The notes: a model not told the origin generated them from the sequence alone. 28,915 bases of DNA from an uncultured Methanosarcinales archaeon (GCA_964419615.1 CAYQPU010000022.1:1-28915); one strand, 5' to 3'. Counted from the stretch's first letter, positions 1,859 through 28,915 are shown. A program made the numbers and translations.

Positions 1859-3274
1859 ATGAACGAAGAATCTACAATTCTAATATATGGTTTAGGAAAT
1901 GAAGGATTAGCCTGGCTAGGTCTGGCTTCAATTGCTTCAAGGGTGATTGGTTATCCTGGTGAAGTTAGAGGATACAATAGAAGTAGTATGAAAGTAGAAC
2001 CACTTAAAGCTGCAGCAGCTAGACATGCCAAAATTGGAGGCAATACTTATGATGAATCATCTGGTTTATGTTATATTGAGTTTCAACAAGAAAGGGGAGA
2101 TGAGATTTTTAGACAAGAAGTTTTTGGTAATGGCAGGTATAAAGGTGTTGAAGAATTAATACAAGCAACTGATGGAGGAGTAAAGGTTGGTTGTACTTCA
2201 CATATTGTCACCGATGATTTTGAAACTGCAATGCTTGGAAAGGATAAAACTCACAGATTACCAGATTATGTTGTTGTATGTACTGTTGCAAATGCCCATG
2301 CACCATTTGCAAAAATGCAGGCAGATTTATTTAACAGTAATCCTAATCTTCTTAAAAATCATGAAGGAAAGATTAATTATGTTTTAAGTCCAGGAAGGTT
2401 TCTTGGTGCATGGGAGGCTCACCTAGCTTTTTATGCATCACTTGATGATTCTTTACAAGATATTGCCAAAGAGAAGATTGTTTGGGCGGAGAGTGGTACA
2501 TCCCCCTATGCCAGTAGAATATCCACTTCAGATCCAACAAAGGTTACAGTAGTAGGTGGAAAAGCATGGAATCCTATAGCAGCAATTCCTGAGTCTGAGA
2601 CACATAATGTCGCAACAGGAATTAGAAAGATAAATCCAATCTATGTGGAAGTTAAGAGGGATAAAGGCAGAGAGATGGATGTTAGGTATACATCCCAAAC
2701 AAGTACAATTGCCATTCCATTTCATGTATTAATGACAACAATGGGTGCTCCACTTATGTATCATAAACAATTAGATTACTATGCAGATCTTCCAGCAATT
2801 CCATTGATTGCCGCAGCGTTAGAAGTAGTTGATAAAGAAAGAGTGGAAGCACTTAAATCTTTGTTTGGAACTAATGCTTGGTCTGGTCTGGAAATTATGA
2901 AAAGAATGTATCCTCTTGCAGAGGGAGATGACATTGCATTAGCAATGATAAACAATCCTGCATATCAAGGTATTTCTGCTCCTCGTTCACTCACAGACTT
3001 AGGTGGAAAGCTTATAAGATACTTGTCAGAAGATGGTCCTTTTACAACTGACCCACTGGTGGATGCAGTTGACAAAGACATTGTTCCATTTATCACAAGT
3101 ATCCTTGGCACAGCGCATAATACATCAATCATGTTAACAGGGAAACCCTTAATAGGAACTGGGAGGACTGCTGAATCTCTCGGACTTGAAGGCCGAACTC
3201 AAGATGAGATTAAAAGTATGCTTAAAACTGGAATAATTCCAGAGGAACTTTTAGCTTTATGGAGAAGTAAATAA
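1859..3274 (+). CDS. NAD/NADP octopine/nopaline (opine) dehydrogenase family protein
   Basis: N-terminal Rossmann GLGNEG...YNRS; AESGTSPYASR; FH motif; C-terminal NPAYQGISAP...RYLSEDGPF matching the family RYxxEDxP motif; GAGGAG Shine-Dalgarno-like sequence upstream. Confidence 0.85.
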   Translation: MNEESTILIYGLGNEGLAWLGLASIASRVIGYPGEVRGYNRSSMKVEPLKAAAARHAKIGGNTYDESSGLCYIEFQQERGDEIFRQEVFGNGRYKGVEELIQATDGGVKVGCTSHIVTDDFETAMLGKDKTHRLPDYVVVCTVANAHAPFAKMQADLFNSNPNLLKNHEGKINYVLSPGRFLGAWEAHLAFYASLDDSLQDIAKEKIVWAESGTSPYASRISTSDPTKVTVVGGKAWNPIAAIPESETHNVATGIRKINPIYVEVKRDKGREMDVRYTSQTSTIAIPFHVLMTTMGAPLMYHKQLDYYADLPAIPLIAAALEVVDKERVEALKSLFGTNAWSGLEIMKRMYPLAEGDDIALAMINNPAYQGISAPRSLTDLGGKLIRYLSEDGPFTTDPLVDAVDKDIVPFITSILGTAHNTSIMLTGKPLIGTGRTAESLGLEGRTQDEIKSMLKTGIIPEELLALWRSK

Positions 3275-3286
3275 TTTTAGGCCAAC

Positions 3287-5155
3287 ATGAATAAAAAAAC
3301 AATAGTTGCACATCCTATGTGGAATGATGCACACACAGAAGGACCAATTGAGTTTCTAAGAATTGCTGCAGATCATAATAATAAAATTGATTTTATTCCT
3401 CCTTCTGATGACCTTGAGAATTTCATTAAAACAATTGAAGATTCCCGTCCAGACATAATTGGATTAAGTTATCGAGGGAAATCCGAGGTTGCTGTAAAAG
3501 CTATGCATGAATATATGAATGTACTTAATGAGAGAGGATTGCTTGAGAAAACCCAAATAAATTTTGGAGGATTAAGAGAATCTTGTGAGCTTATTAAAAA
3601 GATTTTTCCGCAAATTAGAACTTTTTACCAAAGCGCTGACGCGGAACAAGGACAACAATTAGAAATGCTTGATGTTCTGGATAGTCTAGGAGTTAGAGGA
3701 CAATTTGCACAAGAATATGTTCAGAAAAGAATTGCCGATGTTACTGACGATCCAACACTTGCTAATGTTGCTAAAGAAATTGTAGGTGGCGGACAATTTT
3801 GGAGTCACACTGGATTAGGAAACTCAACTCCATTAGCAAGAAAAAATCTTATTCTAAGAATGAAGGAAGATTGGGAAAAAGGCCTTGTGTCTATTAGAAC
3901 TCATTATGGTGAACACTCTGAACCTCCATTATATGGACCTGAAAAAACTGTTCAAGGATTAAAAAAACTTGCAGACTTAATGATTGTTAGTCTTGTGTCT
4001 TTGGGATCATCAAAATATACTCAAACTGGAGAATTCTGGAATCAACCAATGGAATGGCCAAATGGTAAAGATGACGGAGGGGTACCAATAAGATTTTCAC
4101 AAGATCTTGTGGCCCTTAAGAATGCCACGCTAAGAGGAAATTTTCCAGCCCAAAAAGCATATCTTGGTACTGGAAGTAATAAAATGGAATTTAACAGAGC
4201 AATGGTCCAGTATCTTGATCTTGCTCAATGCTTCCAAGCTGTTCCTTTGTTATGGTTTAATAAAGTAGATAGTAGAGGATATATGGAACCTTTGGAATCT
4301 ATGTTGATTAATGAGCAAGTTGTAAAAATGCTCATCAGTGAAAATGTGCCAATTGAATTTAATGAAGCACACCATTGGACATTAAGAGGCGCACATGATG
4401 CAGTCTATGTTGCTGCTCATGGATACGCTGCAGCAATGGCTAATAATTGGGGAGTTAAGGAATACATTGCTCAATTTATGTTTAATACGCCAATTATGTC
4501 GTCTTGGGCAGACTATGCAAAAATGAAAGCTGCACTTGTTGTATCCAGGTTTGTAAGAGGAAATAATAATCTATGGGTTGAGACAAGAGCAGGATTACCA
4601 TATTTTAGGCCACATGAACAAAAAGCCATGGAACAACTGGTTACCACATCACTACTTCAAATGTATCTTAATCCTTCTTTAATGCATGTTGTTTCTGATT
4701 GTGAACCAAGACATGCTGCGTTACCAGATGACATTATTAGGAGTGTTAAGTTAGCTTTAACAGCTATTGAACATTACAAAACTAACCGACATGGTCTCCC
4801 TGATTTTGATAATGACCGTAGAGTGCAGAATCGAGTTGTTGAGCTTGTTAATGAAGCTGGCCTTATCTTAACAGCAATTGCTAGATTAGGTGGATATGAA
4901 GGAGATAGGATTATAGGTCATGATGGATTTAGAATCTGGGAAGATGAAGCTCATTCACTTGATCAATATATAACACCACAAACATTGGTTAAGGCTTGTG
5001 AAAATGATATTCTAGCTGCGCCAGGAGTAATATACAAACCATTCGGTTCAGATATTATTACAGCCCCATTTGAAAACGGGAGATATGTGCTAGATAAAGT
5101 AACAATGGAACAAGTTTCAGAAAAAGAAAGACTTAGTGATTTAGGTGCTTTATAA
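3287..5155 (+). CDS. Cobalamin (B12)-binding domain protein with a large C-terminal catalytic domain of unknown reaction
   Basis: N-terminal base-off motif DAHTEG (DxHxxG), then IGLSY and FGG at canonical spacing; C-terminal blocks GGVPIR, RGNFP, DSRG, EFNEAHHWTLR, QFMFNTP, RAGL, HVVS..E..HAA; starts 12 nt after the opine dehydrogenase stop. Confidence 0.8.
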   Translation: MNKKTIVAHPMWNDAHTEGPIEFLRIAADHNNKIDFIPPSDDLENFIKTIEDSRPDIIGLSYRGKSEVAVKAMHEYMNVLNERGLLEKTQINFGGLRESCELIKKIFPQIRTFYQSADAEQGQQLEMLDVLDSLGVRGQFAQEYVQKRIADVTDDPTLANVAKEIVGGGQFWSHTGLGNSTPLARKNLILRMKEDWEKGLVSIRTHYGEHSEPPLYGPEKTVQGLKKLADLMIVSLVSLGSSKYTQTGEFWNQPMEWPNGKDDGGVPIRFSQDLVALKNATLRGNFPAQKAYLGTGSNKMEFNRAMVQYLDLAQCFQAVPLLWFNKVDSRGYMEPLESMLINEQVVKMLISENVPIEFNEAHHWTLRGAHDAVYVAAHGYAAAMANNWGVKEYIAQFMFNTPIMSSWADYAKMKAALVVSRFVRGNNNLWVETRAGLPYFRPHEQKAMEQLVTTSLLQMYLNPSLMHVVSDCEPRHAALPDDIIRSVKLALTAIEHYKTNRHGLPDFDNDRRVQNRVVELVNEAGLILTAIARLGGYEGDRIIGHDGFRIWEDEAHSLDQYITPQTLVKACENDILAAPGVIYKPFGSDIITAPFENGRYVLDKVTMEQVSEKERLSDLGAL

Positions 5156-5201: not shown

Positions 5202-6935
5202 ATGGTCGGGGTGGAGTACAGGTATGGTAAACATACCATTAAAAAAGAGGTAGAAGATATTAGAGCTTTCTTAGGTGATAAAAGAGGAGGCTATTTTATG
5301 CTTTCTTCTGGGGAGCATTCAAGATATGATGGTTTGTTTTCTTATTTGGATGATATGTATAAGACCGTTGATAGTTTTGGTTTTAGCTTTGGTAAATTAA
5401 CTAATTATCTTAATCATGCTGATATGAATCATACTAAAGCATGGTTTGTTCCTAACAGTAATGCTTTTGTTTTGAATACTACAAGACCACTTACATTGGA
5501 TTTAGATGTTAGAAAGAGTTTTGATTTAAGACAGTGGGGTAGAAACTATGAGATTTCTGTTCATAAGAAAACTATTGTAATAAGGTTTGTAAAAAAGACA
5601 GATCCAAGGGAAGATAAGTCTAGTGGTGAGGTTGAGTATCAATTGTTTGTTGCTATAAAACATTCAGGTAAGCATGATTTTATTGAAGAGTGGATTGAAA
5701 AGTTTTATGATTATGATAAACAGCGAGGATCCCAACCTTTTTCCAGGCATGTTTACAGAGCATTAGATATTGATGCCAAAAAAATTGTTATTGCTACTGC
5801 AGCAAGTGGCAAGCAAGCAATTGATGCTGTAGAGGAAGCTTACGCTAAGCCGAATAAAGCAAGAGTTGGTTTTAAACAAAGCAAAAAACCCAAAACAAGT
5901 TTTGCATACAATTTTGCTAGACAAGGTTTTGATGAACTCATTGTTAATGATAGGATTTTCGCTGGGTTTCCCTGGTTTTTTCAATTCTGGACAAGAGATG
6001 AAGCGGTTAGTGTTGGAGCTTTGATTAGTCAGAAAAAATATGGCTTAGCAAAAAATATACTATTTAACCAGCTTAATTGTATTCAACCAGATGGGAGGAT
6101 TACCAATAGAATTCCTGAATCAAAGTTAACTTGTGCAGATGGTAATGGGTGGAATACATACAGATTAAAACAATTACTAGAGTTAAATCAACTTGATAAA
6201 ACTGAACAGATCTTTTTGAAAGCTAAACTGCAGTACATCTTTGATAGATTTGAAGACAAGTATGTACATGGTGATTTTGTGCATAATGAAAAAAATGAGA
6301 CCTGGATGGACACTGATTTTGAAGGTGATGATAGGGATGGCGCTAGAATTGAGATCCAGGCAATGCATATGTCGTTTTATAATCTAATTTACAAATTAAC
6401 AAAGCAACAAAAGTTTAAGGATTTGGAACTTCACCTGAAACATAAAGTCAAGCAAGAGTTTTGGAGTGGAGAGTTTTTAGCTGATGGTCTGAATGATTTT
6501 ACAGTTAGGCCAAATGTATTTATTGCTTATTATCTTTATCCTAAGTTATTGTCTAAGAAAGAATGGATAAAATGTTTTGAGAATTCCATTCCCAAATTGT
6601 GGCTTGATTGGGGAGGTCTATCAAGTATTGATAAGGATCATATCTTGTTTAGATCTAACTATAGTGGAGAAGATAATGCATCATATCACAGAGGAGATTC
6701 TTGGTACTGGATTAATAATTTAGCTGCTATTTGTTTGTATAGATTAGATAAAGCAAGATTTAAAAGATACATTGATGATATTTTTAATGCTTCAACTCAA
6801 GAAATATTATGGAAGGGCGCTGCTGGAAGGCATGCTGAGATTTCTTCTGCTGCACAGCAAAAAGGTCAAGGTTGTTTGTCACAAGCTTGGAGTTTGGGAA
6901 CTTATATTGAAATGGTTAATGAGTTTGGGTTTTGA
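5202..6935 (+). CDS. Amylo-alpha-1,6-glucosidase (glycogen debranching enzyme, archaeal/GH133-like)
   Basis: AGFPWFFQFWTRDEAVS, TWMDT...RDGARIEIQA, RPNVFIA, YHRGDSWYW and QAWS motifs. Confidence 0.9.
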   Translation: MVGVEYRYGKHTIKKEVEDIRAFLGDKRGGYFMLSSGEHSRYDGLFSYLDDMYKTVDSFGFSFGKLTNYLNHADMNHTKAWFVPNSNAFVLNTTRPLTLDLDVRKSFDLRQWGRNYEISVHKKTIVIRFVKKTDPREDKSSGEVEYQLFVAIKHSGKHDFIEEWIEKFYDYDKQRGSQPFSRHVYRALDIDAKKIVIATAASGKQAIDAVEEAYAKPNKARVGFKQSKKPKTSFAYNFARQGFDELIVNDRIFAGFPWFFQFWTRDEAVSVGALISQKKYGLAKNILFNQLNCIQPDGRITNRIPESKLTCADGNGWNTYRLKQLLELNQLDKTEQIFLKAKLQYIFDRFEDKYVHGDFVHNEKNETWMDTDFEGDDRDGARIEIQAMHMSFYNLIYKLTKQQKFKDLELHLKHKVKQEFWSGEFLADGLNDFTVRPNVFIAYYLYPKLLSKKEWIKCFENSIPKLWLDWGGLSSIDKDHILFRSNYSGEDNASYHRGDSWYWINNLAAICLYRLDKARFKRYIDDIFNASTQEILWKGAAGRHAEISSAAQQKGQGCLSQAWSLGTYIEMVNEFGF

Positions 6936-9180: not shown

Positions 9181-10608
9181 TCACTCTTCTTCAAATATCT
9201 GTGCTTGAAATGTTTGTATTTTAACATCTTCTCTTTGCCAGCAATTTGGTGGAGAATCTTGTTTTTCACATAGATTTTCTAAGAATCTTTCCTTGTCAGG
9301 CAGTTGCTCCCAAACAGAAGGTAAGAATAATGATGATCTTCCCCTATATTGCATAAAAACTCCATCTATGTTTGGTCGAAGCTTTTCTAGTAACTCTTCT
9401 GGAGAATCAAACTCAAAATCTTTTGGTACTGTTAATACACTTACTTCAATTGTGATATCATCAAGCTCGGGTTCTCTTACAGGCTGGAATCTATCATCAT
9501 CAACAGCCGCATTTATTGCATTTGTTTGCACACACTCATACAAAGGTCTTAATGGTATGCTATCTCCTATGCATCCCCTTAGTGGTTGCTGTTCTTTTTC
9601 TTTTGTTAGGGTTACATAACAACCTTGATTTTCTGATAAGTCCTTGAAGTCTTCTGGATTCAAAGAACTTACAAGACCTGTTTTTATGTATTCCTCGACT
9701 GTGTTTCTAGCTAAAGTTAATAACATTTCTTGTTGATCTTCTTGCACATAGTTTTCTACAAATGCAAATGATGCATATCCAACAACATTACTTTTATCAT
9801 TTGTTACATCACCACTATTGCCTGAGTCTAACAGTTTAGATTTCCATTGCTTTTCTTGTGCAATTTTTAAGATTGTAGCTATTGGAACAATACCACAAGC
9901 TTCACAATAAGCTAAGTTGTCAAGAGATTGTTCTTGTATTGCATTTATACAGATCTGGTCCATTTGCTGTGCTTTATTATCAGAATAATAATGAGATAAA
10001 TCTGAACTTGCTACAATTAAAGTATCTTCATCAACATATGGCAATAATATTTGTGCTAATTCTTCATAACCCATTTCACTTATCAATATAGGGATAATTT
10101 CAAATTCTCCTAATTGATGCTGAAGAAATGGTAGTTCAACTTCTATTGAGTGTTCTTTGATATGAGCTGAGGGATGGGATATTATTGATTCATGCTTTCT
10201 GATTTGTTCTGCTTTAGAACTCACCTTTTTTTGTCCCAATGGAGTTTTATACTGATCTACACCTGCTATTGAAGCACCCTTATAATGTTCATTGTGACTA
10301 GCAGCCAGGATGATTACAGTTCCTATTTTTTGATCAATTAGACTGAATCCTTGTGCTGCGATTTGACCAGAATATCTATAACCTGCATGAGGAACTATCA
10401 AAGCTCTGACTTGACTTGGTGGATCAGTTTGATCAGAGTTGTCCAAGAGACTAGCAATATCCTGAGCCAACTCAGCTTGTGAGCTAGGGTAAAATAATCC
10501 TGCTACTGCTGGTTCTCTTATTACATCTTTAGGAGGTGATGAAATTATAAATAATGCCAAAATAAGTATTAATATTCCAAAAAAAAGTGTTTGTATGAAT
10601 TTTCCCAT
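9181..10608 (-). CDS. amrB: AmmeMemoRadiSam system protein B (MEMO1-like) fused to protein A (AMMECR1-like), with an N-terminal hydrophobic segment
   Basis: MEMO motifs REPAVAGLFYP, PHAGYRYSG, EHSIEVELPFLQ, SSDLSHY; AMMECR1 motifs GCYVTL, LRGCIG, EVSVLT, FLPSVWEQL; probable start ATG 10608 (MGKFIQTLFFGILILILALFII) rather than 10689. Confidence 0.9.
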   Translation of the reverse strand: MGKFIQTLFFGILILILALFIISSPPKDVIREPAVAGLFYPSSQAELAQDIASLLDNSDQTDPPSQVRALIVPHAGYRYSGQIAAQGFSLIDQKIGTVIILAASHNEHYKGASIAGVDQYKTPLGQKKVSSKAEQIRKHESIISHPSAHIKEHSIEVELPFLQHQLGEFEIIPILISEMGYEELAQILLPYVDEDTLIVASSDLSHYYSDNKAQQMDQICINAIQEQSLDNLAYCEACGIVPIATILKIAQEKQWKSKLLDSGNSGDVTNDKSNVVGYASFAFVENYVQEDQQEMLLTLARNTVEEYIKTGLVSSLNPEDFKDLSENQGCYVTLTKEKEQQPLRGCIGDSIPLRPLYECVQTNAINAAVDDDRFQPVREPELDDITIEVSVLTVPKDFEFDSPEELLEKLRPNIDGVFMQYRGRSSLFLPSVWEQLPDKERFLENLCEKQDSPPNCWQREDVKIQTFQAQIFEEE

Positions 10609-10698
10609 TTTTTTTGTAATATATGAGTTGTATTTAACTTTTTTGATTCTTTTTAAACAAAAAATTATAAACAAAACTATCTTTACCATTATTTGGAT

Positions 10699-15450: not shown

Positions 15451-16416
15451 TCATTGAGACAAGCTTTTCAAATAGTCATATAGTTTTTGCTTTACCCCTT
15501 TTTTTATGTGAGATTTCCAGTTGACTTCTTCAATTTGCTCGTCTATATTAATTTTTTGGTATGCTGTCAGAGAGCCTTTAAATTCTCTTCCTGCTTGTTT
15601 AGCCTTTTGCTCGATTATTTGAGCTTGTTTACTATTAAACTTTTTAATTGCAGGGAATTTGGTTATACAATTAGCCCCAGCCTTTAATAGGAGATCAACT
15701 TCACCAACTCTGTCTGTCCATATTCCAGAATTAATCTTTAATGTTGGAAAATGTATCCTAATATATGAAATCCATGCGCAATAATATTCTGTTTTTGGTC
15801 CTTTTTTGTCAGTGTAAGCGTGAGGATTTAAAGCGTAAATGTTTATTCTGCTTAGTTTATGTTTTTTAATAAAATCTCGTAATTTGGACATGTCTTTTTC
15901 TGTTTCGCCAAGGCCGATTATTATTGTGATGGACCTATCTAGCCCCAATTCTTCACAGTTCTTTAGCATTTTTTCCATTTGAACCATACTCTTGGAAGGA
16001 CACACTTTTTTTTGTATTTCGGGATTAATGCACTCAATAGACGCATTAACACCTCGAACATGAGGTTTGAGTTGTTTTAATTTGTCCATTGACAAGGTAC
16101 CAATGTTAATCCAGATATCATCTTTATAGATTTCAGATGATAGTTTTAAAATTTCAATTAATTTCTCGATTGTAATTGCATCTTGCCCTGATGTAAAAAA
16201 ATCTATTTTCCAACCCTGAGATTTGCATATGATTATTTCAGCTAAGATTGATTCAACTGATCTTAGTGCTTTTTTTGTGATATTCTTCTTTGACATGTAG
16301 CAGAATTCACAATCTGCATATGAGCAGTACCAACCTAAGAAGATTGCACGTTCAAACCAGGTAACAGCTTTAAAGTTCTCAGAATAAACCTTGCCTGCCT
16401 GCTCTATTTGATTCAT
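15451..16416 (-). CDS. Radical SAM protein, biotin-synthase-like archaeal family of unknown function
   Basis: RAIFLGWYCSYADCEFCYMS (CX4CX2C), SIECINPE, ITIIIGLGET, YALNP. Confidence 0.85.
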   Translation of the reverse strand: MNQIEQAGKVYSENFKAVTWFERAIFLGWYCSYADCEFCYMSKKNITKKALRSVESILAEIIICKSQGWKIDFFTSGQDAITIEKLIEILKLSSEIYKDDIWINIGTLSMDKLKQLKPHVRGVNASIECINPEIQKKVCPSKSMVQMEKMLKNCEELGLDRSITIIIGLGETEKDMSKLRDFIKKHKLSRINIYALNPHAYTDKKGPKTEYYCAWISYIRIHFPTLKINSGIWTDRVGEVDLLLKAGANCITKFPAIKKFNSKQAQIIEQKAKQAGREFKGSLTAYQKINIDEQIEEVNWKSHIKKGVKQKLYDYLKSLSQ

Positions 16417-20305: not shown

Positions 20306-20469
20306 AGCCCCAGAAGGGATTTGAACCCTCAACCTTTTGTTTTCCCGCATGTATCGTGGTCATTACTTGTTCTTCACACCACGTAAATGGGCTTTATGCC
20401 CATTGTGTTTTTATTAAATTTTTCTTAAAAATTTACGAGGCAAATGCTCTACGTTTGAGCTACCGGGGC
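20306..20469 (-). tRNA. tRNA-Thr(CGU) with a 92-nt intron at position 37/38 (intron 20342-20433)
   Basis: Acceptor GCCCCGG/CTGGGGC, D-arm GCTC/GAGC, anticodon loop CT-CGT-A, T-arm GAGGG-TTCAAAT-CCCTT, discriminator U, no encoded CCA; BHB central helix CUCG/CGGG followed by an AA|A bulge. Confidence 0.93.

Positions 20470-21306: not shown

Positions 21307-21313
<7 letters not shown>
20882..21313 (+). CDS. Hypothetical acidic protein
   Basis: 143-aa ORF convergent on and overlapping the pgk stop; no family recognised. Confidence 0.65.
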
Positions 21314-23483
<2,170 letters not shown>

Positions 23484-23596: not shown

Positions 23597-24525
23597 TTAC
23601 TCTCGATAAAACTCTGCTGCTTGCTCAGGTGTTATTTGCTGAACAATCACATTGGTTGCTAATTCAAGTCCACCAAACTTAGCTATTCTTGGGAGTATTT
23701 CCATGTGAAAGTGCAGGTCATGTTGCTTTGGAGCATTGTGAATCACAAAGTTATATGATGCATTTAGTTTTGCAATTTTTGGTAATATTTTATGGAGAAC
23801 TTCAGCTAAATCTTTTAGTTGATCATCATTAAGTTCAGTTATGCTCTTGATGTGATGTTTTGGAAATATCCAAGCTTCAAAGTTAAATCTTGGAGCATAT
23901 GGACAAAAACTGATAAAAGTGTTGTTGTCAAATATTCTACGATCACTATTTTTTTCAGCTTGTATTATTTCACAGTACAAACATTTTCCACCCTTAAAGC
24001 TTGCTTTTAATTCTTGCATAACAAATGGAGGATCAATGTTCATTGCTGCAACTTGTGTGTGAGAGTGTACTAAAGATGTACCAGCATTTATGCCATGATT
24101 TTTGAAAACAGAGACATATTTATTTTTTTGCGATAATTCTTTTGTTCTTGCAACATAAACTTTGAGAACACTTTTGATTTCTTCGACAGTAAAATCATGT
24201 AATTGTTTGTTATGGTCATTTGTTTCTACAATCACTTCATGCTCTCCAAATGCTTTGCCATGTGTGTAGTATTTGTTGTGAGTATCAATATCTTTTGTTC
24301 CTTTTTTAAAAATCCGAATTTATTTTGAAACCACCTTATCTTCCACTGCCCATTTTCTTCAATTCTACCAATTTCAGGTGGGGTTTGATCTTCTTTTCCT
24401 TGACAAAAAGGACATTCTTTATCATTTATTTCTGGCTTTGCTTGCTTAAAGTTCATAGGTCTTTTTTCTCTATGTGGAGCAATTATTGACCATCTATCTA
24501 GAATGTAATCTTTTCTTATTTCCAT
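23597..24525 (-). CDS. galT: Galactose-1-phosphate uridylyltransferase (GalT) family protein, split by a -1 frameshift near 24301-24312
   Basis: N-part EIRKD...RP...CPFC...RWFQNKF; the -1 frame continues KGTKDIDTHNKYYTHGKAFGEHEVIVET and carries the active site AGTSLVHSHTQ. Confidence 0.88.
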
Positions 24526-26306
24526 ACTTTTTCAACTGCAAGGTTGTGAGCTCTTAGGTAATTATCAACCATTTTGTTCCAGTCTGCCAGTGCTGCAAGT
24601 TTCTTGGCTTGAATTTTATTTTCGATTCTTTCTTGCTGAGTTAACTGGGAGTAATTATGCATTATGCCTGTCAATTCATTTACAACATCCTCGTCAGCTC
24701 TACCATGCCGTTTAAGCACATATACTCCGGGATACTGAGTGACAGCTGTCTCAGTTTGAACATATCTTCCAAACCCAGCACAGTCTGTTGTCACTGATGC
24801 AACGCCCAAAGCTCCTGCTTCTAATGGTGTGTATCCCCAAGGTTCATAATATGATGGGAAAACTCCAAGATGTGATCCAGCCATGCATTCATAGTAACTT
24901 AAATCAAGTAGTCTATCTGCTCCAGTTAAATAGATTGGATAAAATATTACCTTAACTTTGTCTCGACTGCTATTTTTCAGACCATGTGCATTTAGATTAT
25001 ATATGATTGCATCGTGTTCTTCATCATGCAGATTATGTGTACTTAATGGTGGGTTTTCCTTTTTCTTTAATGAGAATTTCATAACTTTTCTCTTCAAATC
25101 TCTCATTAATTCTTCTCCAAAAAGGAATTTGTCAGTTGGTCTGATTTCAGATACTAATGAATAAATTAGTCTTTGGTTTATTTCTTTAATTGAATCACTA
25201 ATGCTTCCCTTAATATCTGTAAACAAAGTTTTGTTTTCTAGTAAAACAGATTTTATTCCTCTGACATTTCCAGGGACCCAGATAAATGCAACAACTGTTT
25301 TCTTACTTTTATCTTTTATTAGCTGTTCATTTAGCTTTGATAATGCTTTAATAAAAATGTCAATTCCTTTATCATGATACTCATATCTACCTGCTAGAAA
25401 GTAAATCACTGTGTTGTCCAAATCGAACTTGTAATGCGGGAAGAAATAATACATTAAAAATTCCTTGATTTTTTCTTTGTAAAGCCTATGTTTGATTGTA
25501 CTTTCTTCTAGAGTTGGGAATTTTTCAATATCTAATCCATTTAATAAAAGGACATCAGGCTTTCGTCCAAGTAAAGCTTCTGCTTCAAGTCCAGTAACTT
25601 CACTAACAGTTGTGAATACATCCACATGTTTTGCACATTGTGTTTCCATTTGATGTTTGTCAATGATTCCCATTTCTCGTGCTTTTTGCTCTGGATCAAT
25701 TTTGTCCATTAATTCGTATAGGTCTTGGTTTGATCCAGTGATTGTTCGTCCAAGCATTGTTGCATGAGTTGTGAACACAGTTCCAACTTTTATTTTTCTT
25801 GATTTTAAATAAAGTAAAGCTGTGCCACTTAACCATTCGTGACATTGGACAACAAGGTTTTTTCGTCCAAATTTGGCAATTTCTTCAATTAATCTACCAA
25901 CTGCATATGACCAAGTAACTGGCTCATCAAAGCTATTTGGTGAGTGCAGTGAATCAATTTGATAATTATCCCAAAGTTCCTTTTTAATTCTATCCTTGTT
26001 TCCCAAGTACCCAAGAAAGTCAACAAGAATTGTTTTTGGTTCACCTGGAACCATCCATTCACCATAATGACATATTATTCCTTCATCTTTAAGTTTACTA
26101 AAAATTGCCCTCAGGTGTTCTGGTGCCACCATCTCTTGGAATTCCCCTGCTGCCTTATCATTAAAGTAAGGTCCAATAACATAATAATTATCATTATAGT
26201 GACTCATAATAGGGTTTATTTTTGATTTTACTACAGTATAAATGCCCCCTACTTTATTACATACTTCCCAAGATACCTCAAATAAGAAATCTGCTTCTGC
26301 CTTCAT
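24516..26306 (-). CDS. Glycogen synthase, GT3 family
   Basis: FEVSWEVCNKVGGIYTV, FTTHATMLGR, AGRYEYHDKGID, PSYYEPWGYTPLEA. Confidence 0.95.
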   Translation of the reverse strand: MKAEADFLFEVSWEVCNKVGGIYTVVKSKINPIMSHYNDNYYVIGPYFNDKAAGEFQEMVAPEHLRAIFSKLKDEGIICHYGEWMVPGEPKTILVDFLGYLGNKDRIKKELWDNYQIDSLHSPNSFDEPVTWSYAVGRLIEEIAKFGRKNLVVQCHEWLSGTALLYLKSRKIKVGTVFTTHATMLGRTITGSNQDLYELMDKIDPEQKAREMGIIDKHQMETQCAKHVDVFTTVSEVTGLEAEALLGRKPDVLLLNGLDIEKFPTLEESTIKHRLYKEKIKEFLMYYFFPHYKFDLDNTVIYFLAGRYEYHDKGIDIFIKALSKLNEQLIKDKSKKTVVAFIWVPGNVRGIKSVLLENKTLFTDIKGSISDSIKEINQRLIYSLVSEIRPTDKFLFGEELMRDLKRKVMKFSLKKKENPPLSTHNLHDEEHDAIIYNLNAHGLKNSSRDKVKVIFYPIYLTGADRLLDLSYYECMAGSHLGVFPSYYEPWGYTPLEAGALGVASVTTDCAGFGRYVQTETAVTQYPGVYVLKRHGRADEDVVNELTGIMHNYSQLTQQERIENKIQAKKLAALADWNKMVDNYLRAHNLAVEKVWK

Positions 26307-27847: not shown

Positions 27848-28915
27848 TTACATTTTCTTCATTAGATCATAAATATGTTTTGTTCCTTGATCAATTGACA
27901 TTGACTCTTTAATATATATTGGTTTGCCGATTCTGACTGTTACTATCCCCTTTTTTTTTGGTAATAGATCACGTACGGAAGCCTGAGTTACTTTTCCGCT
28001 CGGTGGAGGGTACAGTTCATAATAATTTTCAGAAATTTTAATTGGAATTATTGAAACATTCATTGTCTTTGCATAGTATACTACACCTTTTCTAAAGTTC
28101 TGCAATTCACCTTCTCTTTGCAGCCTTCCTTCGGGACTTGTCATAAAAAACCATCCCTTGTCAAAAATATAGCCTATATCATCTAAATTTGCGCCGTACA
28201 ATGGAAATGCGGATGCAACATGATGTAATAGTTTTCCAAATTTTCCATTCCCGTCTTTTCCCCAAAAATAATCAGCAGTGCCTGTGGCAACCTTGCTTCT
28301 TAGATTGATTGGAAGAATTCTTAAGCAACATGCCCCATCCAACAACCCAACATGATTGAATATTATAATTGATGGGGCTTTGATCTTTTTTATGTTATGT
28401 TTGTCAAGAATTTTAATTTTAATATATAGTCTGTGAAATGGAAAGAAAAATGTTAATTGCAGTAAGTTTTTTATAATTTGATTAGATTTGTTAAATATAC
28501 TAAGATCAAATTTTGAGCTTGCTTTCTTACTTCCAATTTTTATTTTATTTCTAAGTTCTTTAACAGTTGTTTTAATTTTAATGTCAAAATCTCCGATTTC
28601 CACCCCAAATTCTTCCTCAATTCTTGCAAGAATCTCAGCCCGATCTAAAGAATCTATGTTTAAATCAAGACTAAGGCTCATATTTTCTGTTATTTTGTTT
28701 TTTGATGAAACTTCCTTTAGAATCATTATTAATGGGTCAGAGGTTTTTATGGAGGAGGGTTTTGCAATTTTAATTTTTTGTAGTTTGTTATGAATCACTT
28801 TTCGATCTATCTTGAGGGTTCTTGTTCTGGGAAAATCTTCTTCATTCCATAATGCATAAGATCTTATCTGTTGTTTACTTTCAAGTTTTTTATTGACTTC
28901 TCTAACAATTTTGTC
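27848..28915 (-). CDS. Partial multidomain acyl-activating enzyme: AMP-binding C-terminus, acyl carrier domain and PlsC-type acyltransferase (5' end outside the window)
   Basis: Frame is open from base 28915 (DKIVREV...FPRTRTLKIDRK, adenylation A10-like); carrier motif IDSLDRAEILARIEEEF; acyltransferase motifs NHVGLLD and PEGR. Confidence 0.88.
   Translation of the reverse strand, partial: DKIVREVNKKLESKQQIRSYALWNEEDFPRTRTLKIDRKVIHNKLQKIKIAKPSSIKTSDPLIMILKEVSSKNKITENMSLSLDLNIDSLDRAEILARIEEEFGVEIGDFDIKIKTTVKELRNKIKIGSKKASSKFDLSIFNKSNQIIKNLLQLTFFFPFHRLYIKIKILDKHNIKKIKAPSIIIFNHVGLLDGACCLRILPINLRSKVATGTADYFWGKDGNGKFGKLLHHVASAFPLYGANLDDIGYIFDKGWFFMTSPEGRLQREGELQNFRKGVVYYAKTMNVSIIPIKISENYYELYPPPSGKVTQASVRDLLPKKKGIVTVRIGKPIYIKESMSIDQGTKHIYDLMKKM

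Follow-up and report, generated by a model that had tools for sequence, protein, structure and literature searches.

What reaction is carried out by two adjoining genes, one related to opine dehydrogenases and the other bearing the signature of a cobalamin enzyme, in a small archaeon? The question is raised by positions 1859 to 5155 of contig CAYQPU010000022.1 (assembly GCA_964419615.1, filed as an uncultured Methanosarcinales archaeon), which was analysed over its whole length of 28,915 nt, hereafter the window. The host is a small DPANN archaeon, and the reduced-genome label that it had received holds for an assembly of 1.48 Mb that is 99.4% complete. Both genes lie on the + strand and occur once each in this genome. 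P0001 (1859..3274, 471 amino acids (aa)) is a predicted NAD(P)-dependent C-N oxidoreductase of the opine dehydrogenase family, delimited by its PF02317 and 1bg6 matches and by an AlphaFold2 (AF2) model; P0002 (3287..5155, 622 aa) is predicted from its model and its family profile to join a cobalamin domain to a barrel of the type found in GlmE, the E component of glutamate mutase. A preliminary description of this DNA had placed two genes, 12 nt apart, between 1859 and 5155; open reading frames (ORFs) at 1859-3274 and 3287-5155, this spacing and all the motifs quoted for both proteins were recovered in the analysis. Its interpretation, a two-step pathway around an unusual N-carboxyalkyl amino acid, is partly supported overall. 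Our analysis indicates that P0002 is probably a single-chain adenosylcobalamin (AdoCbl) radical isomerase working in tandem with the opine-dehydrogenase-type P0001.

The only Pfam match of P0001 is Octopine_DH (PF02317, E 1e-10, 42.2 bits for a cut-off of 30), and its match among PDB sequences is N-(1-D-carboxyethyl)-L-norvaline dehydrogenase (CENDH; 1bg6, E 1.2e-5). Through the 1bg6 alignment, the CENDH residues H202, R292 and D297 correspond to H289, R387 and D392 of P0001. They lie in PFHV (residues 287-290 with the catalytic His289, within 2717-2728, +) and in RYLSED (residues 387-392 with Arg387 and Asp392, 3017-3034, +), and the Rossmann dinucleotide motif GxGxxG is present as GLGNEG (residues 11-16, 1889-1906, +). 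Residues G11, G13, H147, R180, R220, K235, H289, E327, Y351, Y369, R387, Y388, E391 and R436 are kept in all 76 dehydrogenase partners compared, and D392 in 98% of them. An AF2 model built on 35 partner sequences reached a pLDDT of 90.9; a Foldseek search with it ranked 1bg6 first (E 5e-20, TM 0.85 normalised to the target), followed by octopine, pseudopaline, yersinopine and staphylopine dehydrogenases, with ketopantoate reductases and mannitol-1-phosphate dehydrogenases below the opine dehydrogenases. Given the Pfam match, the 1bg6 alignment, the residue conservation and the fold, P0001 is assigned by prediction to the opine dehydrogenase family with an intact catalytic set, as had been read from its motifs.

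P0001 shares with CENDH and with the octopine, pseudopaline and staphylopine dehydrogenases the fold, the Octopine_DH domain and the catalytic His, Arg and Asp, but ten short insertions make it exceed the usual relatives of 370 aa by about 100 residues. Its strand 2 ends with Asn40-Arg41 in the place that an acidic residue commonly takes in NAD enzymes, and this suggests NADP(H) as the cofactor. Opine dehydrogenases require a 2-oxo acid substrate and create a D-configured centre on the carbon derived from the oxo acid, as is established for the CENDH and nopaline enzymes.

P0002 begins with a cobalamin-binding Rossmann domain (residues 1-136, 3287..3694, +), delimited with the family profile and VIA alignments. 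It contains DAHTEG (residues 14-19 with His16, 3326-3343, +), GLSYR (residues 59-63 with S61, 3461-3475, +) and NFGG (residues 92-95, 3560-3571, +). According to the secondary structure of the model, a helical linker follows (residues 137-180, 3695..3826, +); this linker is longer in the clade of the window, so that about 180 residues precede the barrel in P0002 and about 132-150 in most relatives. A word-indexed search with P0002 returned four relatives, and an exhaustive one returned 233 representative clusters at 50% identity, of which 46 have E values under 1e-30. PF02310 (B12-binding) is matched by 25 of 44 full-length relatives (best E 1e-10), and the family profile reaches E 6e-6 against the corrinoid domains 4jgi and 2yxb, the histidine of DxHxxG being in register.

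In the AF2 model of P0002 (pLDDT 92.1, pTM 0.93), the Rossmann domain superposes on residues 87-208 of 4jgi_B (VIA Z 14.7, root-mean-square deviation (rmsd) 2.4, 122 residues), and 1y80 and 7xcn_N score similarly. The alignment of the corrinoid proteins sets in at their residue 86-92, and strand 1 of P0002 begins at residue 5; since only the Rossmann part aligns, the P0002 domain is devoid of the helical cap that methyltransferase corrinoid proteins have. Among 81 relatives, the set on which the conservation in P0002 was assessed throughout, H16 and G19 are each kept in 98% and G95 in 97%. Profile, fold and conservation thus agree with the earlier proposal that the second gene encodes a true cobalamin-type domain, joined to a catalytic part that is itself conserved.

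The catalytic domain, which had not been connected with any one fold, is not a novel one: Foldseek and VIA identify it as a TIM barrel of the GlmE/KamD/OraE type. The barrel with its C-terminal lid occupies residues 181-622 (3827..5155, +) according to AF2, Foldseek, VIA and hhalign. Foldseek retrieved GlmE (1cb7_B, E 3e-11), and VIA superposed residues 181-615 of the model on chain residues 41-440 of GlmE with Z 28.0 and an rmsd of 3.1 Å over 378 residues. The aminomutase barrels come close, with Z 27.3 (8t0v_A) and 25.2 (1xrs_A) for KamD and 24.8 (3kow_A) for OraE; methylmalonyl-CoA mutase (MCM) reaches about Z 20 and the MetH barrels only Z 13.6-14.5.

At the sequence level, PF06368 (Met_asp_mut_E) is matched weakly by 9 of 44 relatives (P0017, 27.5 bits for a cut-off of 26.6). 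A scan with PF06368 of five host genomes and of 201 genomes of one class provided only two canonical GlmE sequences, and the E. coli O157 Sakai operon provided a third. Aligned to these three by hhalign, the barrel-only family alignment gave a probability of 90% (E 1.8e-6, 375 columns) over the same ranges as the structural alignment; the probability was just 36% when a single GlmE was used. Neither P0002 alone nor the barrel-only family profile reached GlmE among the PDB sequences, and a hidden Markov model built from the three GlmE sequences scored the family too weakly for use. The relation to GlmE is therefore visible only through structure comparison and through hhalign with the three GlmE sequences. 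On the evidence of the model, P0002 is placed in the AdoCbl isomerase superfamily, nearest to glutamate mutase E.

Every strand of the barrel ends in residues that are invariant among the relatives: R204/H206, S238/Q246, Y292/G294/T295, W323/D328/R330, E357/N359/H362/R367, Q396/N400, R434 and H467/E473. The corresponding motifs follow one another along the + strand as IRTHYG (3893-3910), KYTQ (4013-4024), YLGTG (4160-4174), WFNKVDSRG (4253-4279), EFNEAHHWTLR (residues 357-367, 4355-4387), which holds the invariant E357/N359/H362/R367 block, QFMFNTP (4472-4492), ETRAG (4580-4594) and DCEPRH with Glu473 (4697-4714). For comparison, the numbering of Clostridium cochlearium GlmE was carried over via the alignment of E. 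coli GlmE with 6h9e. A glutamate contacts the ribose of the adenosyl group in glutamate mutase (Glu330), MCM (Glu370) and ornithine aminomutase (Glu338) (PMC4413051). GlmE Glu330 aligns with the invariant E473 of the family, and GlmE Y177 with the invariant W323.

A further link to AdoCbl enzymes is provided by MutL, an accessory protein whose gene lies between those of the two glutamate mutase subunits (glmL in the E. coli O157 Sakai operon). The distant family members P0034, P0039 and P0032 carry a C-terminal MutL domain (Pfam E 2e-82). A metagenome scan with P0039 yielded 80 loci; the mutase-MutL fusion is present in 79 of them, and an opine-dehydrogenase-type gene adjoins it in 63 of the 79. 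A search with P0039 at E 1e-120 in 301 genomes of one phylum returned no match and is uninformative. MutL was not found beside the pair in the 80 loci from GTDB. Three metagenome loci (L127, L128 and L129) hold two mutase/dehydrogenase pairs in tandem, and among these a mutase of about 550 aa of the main-family type is followed by an apparently separate MutL gene, so that MutL may not be confined to the fused subfamily. Because of the MutL fusion, E473 and the cap-less domain, together with a CobA adenosyltransferase in the genome, we infer that P0002 uses AdoCbl for a radical isomerisation rather than a methylated cofactor for methyl transfer.

The partnership of the two genes was surveyed in GTDB with one genome per species. 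At least 150 loci were found and 80 kept, and pairing was counted over 85 rows that include the window. The dehydrogenase gene directly adjoins the mutase gene on the same strand in 79 of the 85, in either gene order, which bears out the expectation that the pair is conserved. The two reading frames share 4 nt at their start and stop codons in 26 loci and a single nucleotide in 3. The six exceptions comprise four rows (three contigs) cut at a contig end, one gene lying 3.5 kb off, and L069, which has no dehydrogenase gene. Of the first four contigs, L001 and L004 carry the two genes side by side, L003 does so with their order reversed, and L002 is truncated by the end of its contig. The family, whose gene pair recurs among anaerobic bacteria, spreads over at least 150 GTDB species, from digester and sediment bacteria to DPANN and Asgard archaea, among them the cultured Promethearchaeum syntrophicum; the protein atlas gives only generic names for it.

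The surrounding genes fall into distinct arrangements. In Bacteroidota and Ignavibacteriota, the operon reads (two-component system), opine dehydrogenase, mutase, AsnB-like protein and MarC; in Bacillota, a Ddl-like ATP-grasp gene precedes or follows the pair; in Asgard archaea and Chloroflexota, the pair mostly stands alone. AsnB-like or Ddl-like ligases accompany 43 of 82 loci and never occur together, which suggests that two unrelated ligases fill one role. The usual order in the MutL-fused subfamily is an RpiR regulator, the opine dehydrogenase, the mutase-MutL fusion, an SBP5 protein, two permeases and two ATPases, with TRAP- or TTT-type importers as alternatives. The gene immediately upstream in these loci is often one for a C26 peptidase of the gamma-glutamyl-hydrolase type, an AAT/Ntn hydrolase, an amidohydrolase, a gamma-glutamyltranspeptidase or a D-glutamate-cyclase-like protein. 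Such hydrolase or cyclase genes are present in 26 of the 79 MutL-fused loci, importers in 47 and regulators in 33. Other fusion partners of the mutase are an M15 peptidase and an ATP-grasp domain of the glutathione-synthetase type.

The supply of the cofactor in this host was examined at the genome level. CobS, CbiB, a FecCD-type (BtuC-type) permease and a PduO-type adenosyltransferase were not found in the genome, and a CobA-type adenosyltransferase is present (E 9e-53), along with six further open frames for B12-binding proteins of about 470-620 aa. The proposal that cobalamin is salvaged and not made is thereby strengthened: since CobS and CbiB were not found, cobalamin must be imported, and the host depends on the corrinoids of other organisms.

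The family tree joins the window to L002 (Woesearchaeota), L013 and L001 (SH-aLRT 99) on a long branch outside the 76-row main family, to which its protein is only 28-30% identical; L004 is more divergent still. The closest homologue sharing the gene order comes from a metagenome-assembled genome of Woesearchaeota. Phylogeny had been put forward as a test for horizontal transfer, and it points to no recent bacterial source: the idea that bacteria recently passed on the window's copy was rejected, given a separate, long-branched archaeal clade without a bacterial sister. Distribution within the order is nevertheless patchy. The mutase is present in 3 of 150 other genomes of the same GTDB order, none of the same genus or family, and all three copies are of the main-family type with the dehydrogenase gene directly upstream. 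Because of this patchiness, the pair is to be regarded as an accessory, mobile unit in these archaea.

The members of this clade share a further gene. In the window, it begins 46 nt 3′ of P0002 on the same strand and encodes a GDE_C-type (alpha/alpha)6 glycosidase-like protein of 577 aa (5202..6935, +; PF06202, E 4e-28). A protein of this type is encoded near the pair in all four clade loci (L002:1777-3510, L013:12442-14169 and L001:10397-10690 besides the window), and two of the four also carry a Ddl-like gene. The GDE_C proteins of the clade are about 40-47% identical, and the window's protein has no sequence match to any solved structure. It could belong to the pathway of the pair or to the glycogen metabolism that is also encoded in the window.

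Taken together, these data lead us to the following mechanism. P0002 would dock its N-terminal base-off/His-on cobalamin domain on the GlmE-type TIM barrel, and the co-translated P0001, with NAD(P)H as its coenzyme, would form or cleave a C-N bond beside a carboxylate. The dehydrogenase would condense a 2-oxo acid with an amine (or ammonia) to a D-configured (N-alkyl)amino diacid, or run this step backwards. The B12 enzyme would form a 5′-deoxyadenosyl radical, abstract a hydrogen and carry out a 1,2-shift on the amino-diacid skeleton, as glutamate mutase does on glutamate but with a different substrate pocket. The module may be reversible and serve in two kinds of operon. One appears suited to import and breakdown, having the RpiR regulator, an importer of the peptide-type ABC or the TRAP class, and hydrolases for gamma-glutamyl or other amide bonds; the other appears suited to synthesis, having MarC and a ligase of the Ddl or AsnB type. 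The neighbour of the pair in this archaeon is a GDE_C-type hydrolase, and its cobalamin would have to be imported whole and would be adenosylated by CobA.

A glutamate-like amino diacid, D-configured or N-substituted, is our tentative guess for the class of substrate and could well prove wrong; it is made because the products of several partner genes handle gamma-glutamyl bonds or D-amino acids and because opine dehydrogenases create a D centre. The N-carboxyalkyl amino acid pathway put forward earlier is a reasonable hypothesis. It is speculative, and on balance doubtful, that the pair performs an AdoCbl chemistry not described before, whether a radical 1,2-rearrangement of an amino diacid that is D-configured or, as in opines, N-substituted, or an imine-based migration of an amino group that is free of pyridoxal phosphate (PLP). 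If it does, the opine dehydrogenase would be an obligate second component in either chemistry, and the compound would be exchanged between producing anaerobes with ligase/MarC operons and importing, degrading ones with ABC/RpiR/amidase operons.

Several observations weigh against this mechanism. P0002 alone has no match in Pfam (E 0.01) or NCBIfam. The DxHxxG signature ascribed to the second gene is present in P0002 itself as DAHTEG, but it does not extend to most of the family, which has CxHxxG: cysteine replaces the aspartate in 95% of the relatives, and the clade of the window keeps the aspartate. We know of no description of a cysteine at the position that normally hydrogen-bonds the cobalt-ligating histidine. 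In the substrate pocket, hhalign places H206, Q246 and Y292 at the positions of GlmE R66, R100 and R149, and the variable position 317 at that of E171; we take these four GlmE residues to be those that hold glutamate in the GlmES structures. Because they are replaced, P0002 is predicted not to be a glutamate mutase, and as far as the pocket is concerned the comparison with glutamate carries little weight. In addition, the clade of the window shows substitutions at several positions that the main family conserves (D235S, D242S, Q243K, R290K and W316F), for which reason it may use another substrate. The genomic context of the host offers less than that of its relatives: MutL was not found in the window's own genome, a Ddl-like gene is absent from that genome, and neither Ddl nor AsnB is encoded in the window. 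The CobA gene adjoins three tandem genes for class-II-type ribonucleotide-reductase large subunits (contig C4:14744-20568, -), so that it is accounted for without P0002 and is by itself no argument for it. Finally, a functional connection of the GDE_C-type protein with the pair would be drawn from four loci only.

Other readings of P0002 give up either AdoCbl or the new substrate. A degenerate Rossmann domain that no longer binds cobalamin, leaving P0002 as a cofactor-independent TIM-barrel enzyme, would agree with the missing PF02310 match of P0002 and with the cysteine in the motif of its relatives; it is very improbable, since His16, Gly19 and the GG motif are kept in 97-98% across very distant phyla, the fold and the register match corrinoid domains, and MutL fusions are sensible only for a B12 enzyme. 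Were cobalamin bound in its methyl form, P0002 would combine a corrinoid domain with a TIM-barrel methyltransferase in the manner of MetH or MtaB/MtaC. The N-terminus has indeed been reached through COG5012, a methyltransferase-type B12 domain (PMC2667541), and corrinoid proteins from methyltransferase systems are among the PDB sequences that the domain matches best. However, no helical cap (B12-binding_2) precedes the Rossmann domain, the barrel scores higher with AdoCbl isomerases (Z 20-28) than with MetH (about Z 14), the lower score being no bar to membership by itself, a whole sister subfamily is fused to MutL and the ribose-contacting glutamate is invariant, so that methyl transfer is scarcely to be expected. 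An ordinary glutamate mutase in fused form, converting L-glutamate into L-threo-3-methylaspartate for glutamate fermentation or the methylaspartate cycle, would explain why GlmE is the best structural match, why some relatives touch PF06368 and why MutL fusions exist. Yet the replaced R66, R100, R149 and E171, the different domain order and fusion, and a constant partner that is an opine dehydrogenase and not the methylaspartate ammonia-lyase of the E. coli O157 operon make it extremely improbable.

Two further alternatives retain AdoCbl and change the reaction. In a PLP-free aminomutase, an imine made by the dehydrogenase, either by oxidation of a secondary amine or held between an amino acid and a 2-oxo acid, would act like the PLP aldimine of lysine 5,6- and ornithine 4,5-aminomutase, its sp2 nitrogen allowing the B12 enzyme to migrate the amino group. 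KamD (Z 27.3) and OraE (Z 24.8) match the barrel about as well as GlmE does (Z 28.0), and the dehydrogenase is an obligate neighbour that is often translationally coupled. In the PLP-dependent aminomutases, a lysine of the Rossmann domain (Lys144, Lys629) anchors PLP as an internal aldimine (PMC3958899). No lysine is conserved at 90% or more within residues 1-136 of the P0002 relatives, so that the activation of a migrating nitrogen would have to come from something other than Lys-bound PLP. Nothing, however, favours the migration of nitrogen over that of carbon, the imine is prone to hydrolysis and would need channelling between two proteins, and Pfam puts the reachable members in Met_asp_mut_E and not with the aminomutases. 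We know of no precedent for an imine-based enzyme of this kind and consider it quite unlikely. The need of opine dehydrogenases for a 2-oxo acid would be served if the B12 enzyme were instead an eliminase that shifts a hydroxyl or amino group to the geminal position and eliminates it, after the model of diol dehydratase and ethanolamine ammonia-lyase, the resulting carbonyl compound or 2-oxo acid then being condensed with an amine by the dehydrogenase. The very polar invariant pocket (E357, N359, H362, D371, H467 and D328) could hold a hydroxylated or aminated substrate, and a glycosidase-like GDE_C protein stands beside the pair in the clade of the window. But diol dehydratase and ethanolamine ammonia-lyase are absent from the top 50 VIA matches, the best of which are mutases and aminomutases, and an eliminase is unlikely.

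The family and its partner gene are not new. A novel B12-dependent family was predicted in 11 bacteria by Zhang, Rodionov, Gelfand and Gladyshev in 2009 (BMC Genomics 10:78; PMC2667541), with a distant N-terminal B12 domain, a predicted TIM barrel, a constant position beside a pfam02317 octopine/nopaline dehydrogenase, and a D-Ala-D-Ala ligase or asparagine synthase nearby. The N-terminal B12 domain, the barrel and the pfam02317 pairing were all reproduced in our survey, as were the ligase neighbours in 43 of 82 loci, and on these described features we take the two families to be the same. That paper included no archaea, assigned no fold to the catalytic domain, made no choice between AdoCbl and methylcobalamin and reported no MutL fusions (PMC2667541). 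The absence of a characterised reaction, noted at the outset, is borne out by literature searches outside subscription journals, which yielded only the 2009 paper as relevant. To these earlier findings, the present analysis adds the fold assignment, the case for AdoCbl, the loss of the glutamate-binding residues, a MutL-fused sister subfamily that is paired with the dehydrogenase and set in catabolic operons, the occurrence in Asgard and DPANN archaea, and the GDE_C link in the clade of the window.

Among characterised enzymes, glutamate mutase GlmS/GlmE (1CB7, 1CCW, 1I9C and 6H9E) has in common with P0002 the barrel, the Glu330/E473 pair, the cap-less His-on domain and the association with MutL; P0002 differs in being one chain with the B12 domain first, in the lost substrate residues and in having an opine dehydrogenase as partner. 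KamDE and OraSE (1XRS, 8T0V and 3KOW) have a barrel that is nearly as similar, together with AdoCbl and a Rossmann B12 domain, but they carry PLP on a Rossmann lysine for which the P0002 family has no conserved counterpart. The fused isobutyryl-CoA mutase IcmF (4XC6) is likewise one chain with an N-terminal B12 domain, and P0002 residues 1-596 align with it (Z 17), but the fit is poor (rmsd about 7 Å), and IcmF holds a G-protein chaperone domain in between and binds acyl-CoA. As a matter of pathway design only, the operons of Bacillota and of the window's clade resemble the logic of PylB/PylC/PylD, in which a radical mutase for a methyl-branched D-amino acid is combined with an ATP-grasp ligase resembling Ddl and with a dehydrogenase that uses NAD and takes an amine as its substrate; PylB is a radical S-adenosylmethionine (SAM) enzyme and not a B12 enzyme, and PylD lies outside the opine dehydrogenase family.

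Other features of the window were recorded alongside the pair. The 290-nt spacer 5′ of the dehydrogenase gene (1570-1860, +) has a predicted fold of -84 kcal/mol (z -4.8), equalled by none of 200 shuffles, and no Rfam match; an 83-aa ORF lies on the opposite strand at 1549-1800. An Rfam scan of the whole window at gathering thresholds detected no cobalamin or other riboswitch 5′ of the pair and returned only a tRNA at 20306-20469 (-; 45.9 bits). This match spans 164 nt and thereby implies a long intron, and ARAGORN finds no tRNA in the window. A PF05693-type glycogen synthase (24516-26306, -; E 1.5e-157) shares the window with the PGK and GAPDH genes (21307-23480, -), and with GDE_C these form a carbohydrate-storage and glycolysis neighbourhood. 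A fusion of Memo and AMMECR1 (502 aa; 9181-10689, -) is encoded a few kb from a radical SAM protein (15451-16416, -); together they supply all three components of the AmmeMemoRadiSam system. At 27848-28798 (-), a phosphopantetheine-attachment (carrier) domain is joined to an acyltransferase domain in one protein.

To our knowledge, only about a dozen AdoCbl isomerase reactions are known, and new ones are rarely found. The family of P0002 is a well-defined and phylogenetically broad orphan family, with a conserved active site that is devoid of the substrate residues of glutamate mutase and with an invariable dehydrogenase partner. The prediction made in 2009 is now testable in terms of AdoCbl use, a GlmE-type radical mechanism, substrate classes suggested by the operon contexts and the key residues H16, E473, R204/H206, Y292, D328/R330 and E357/N359/H362. 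For the archaeon, the pair would represent one more B12-dependent function in a 1.48-Mb genome that relies on the corrinoids of others.

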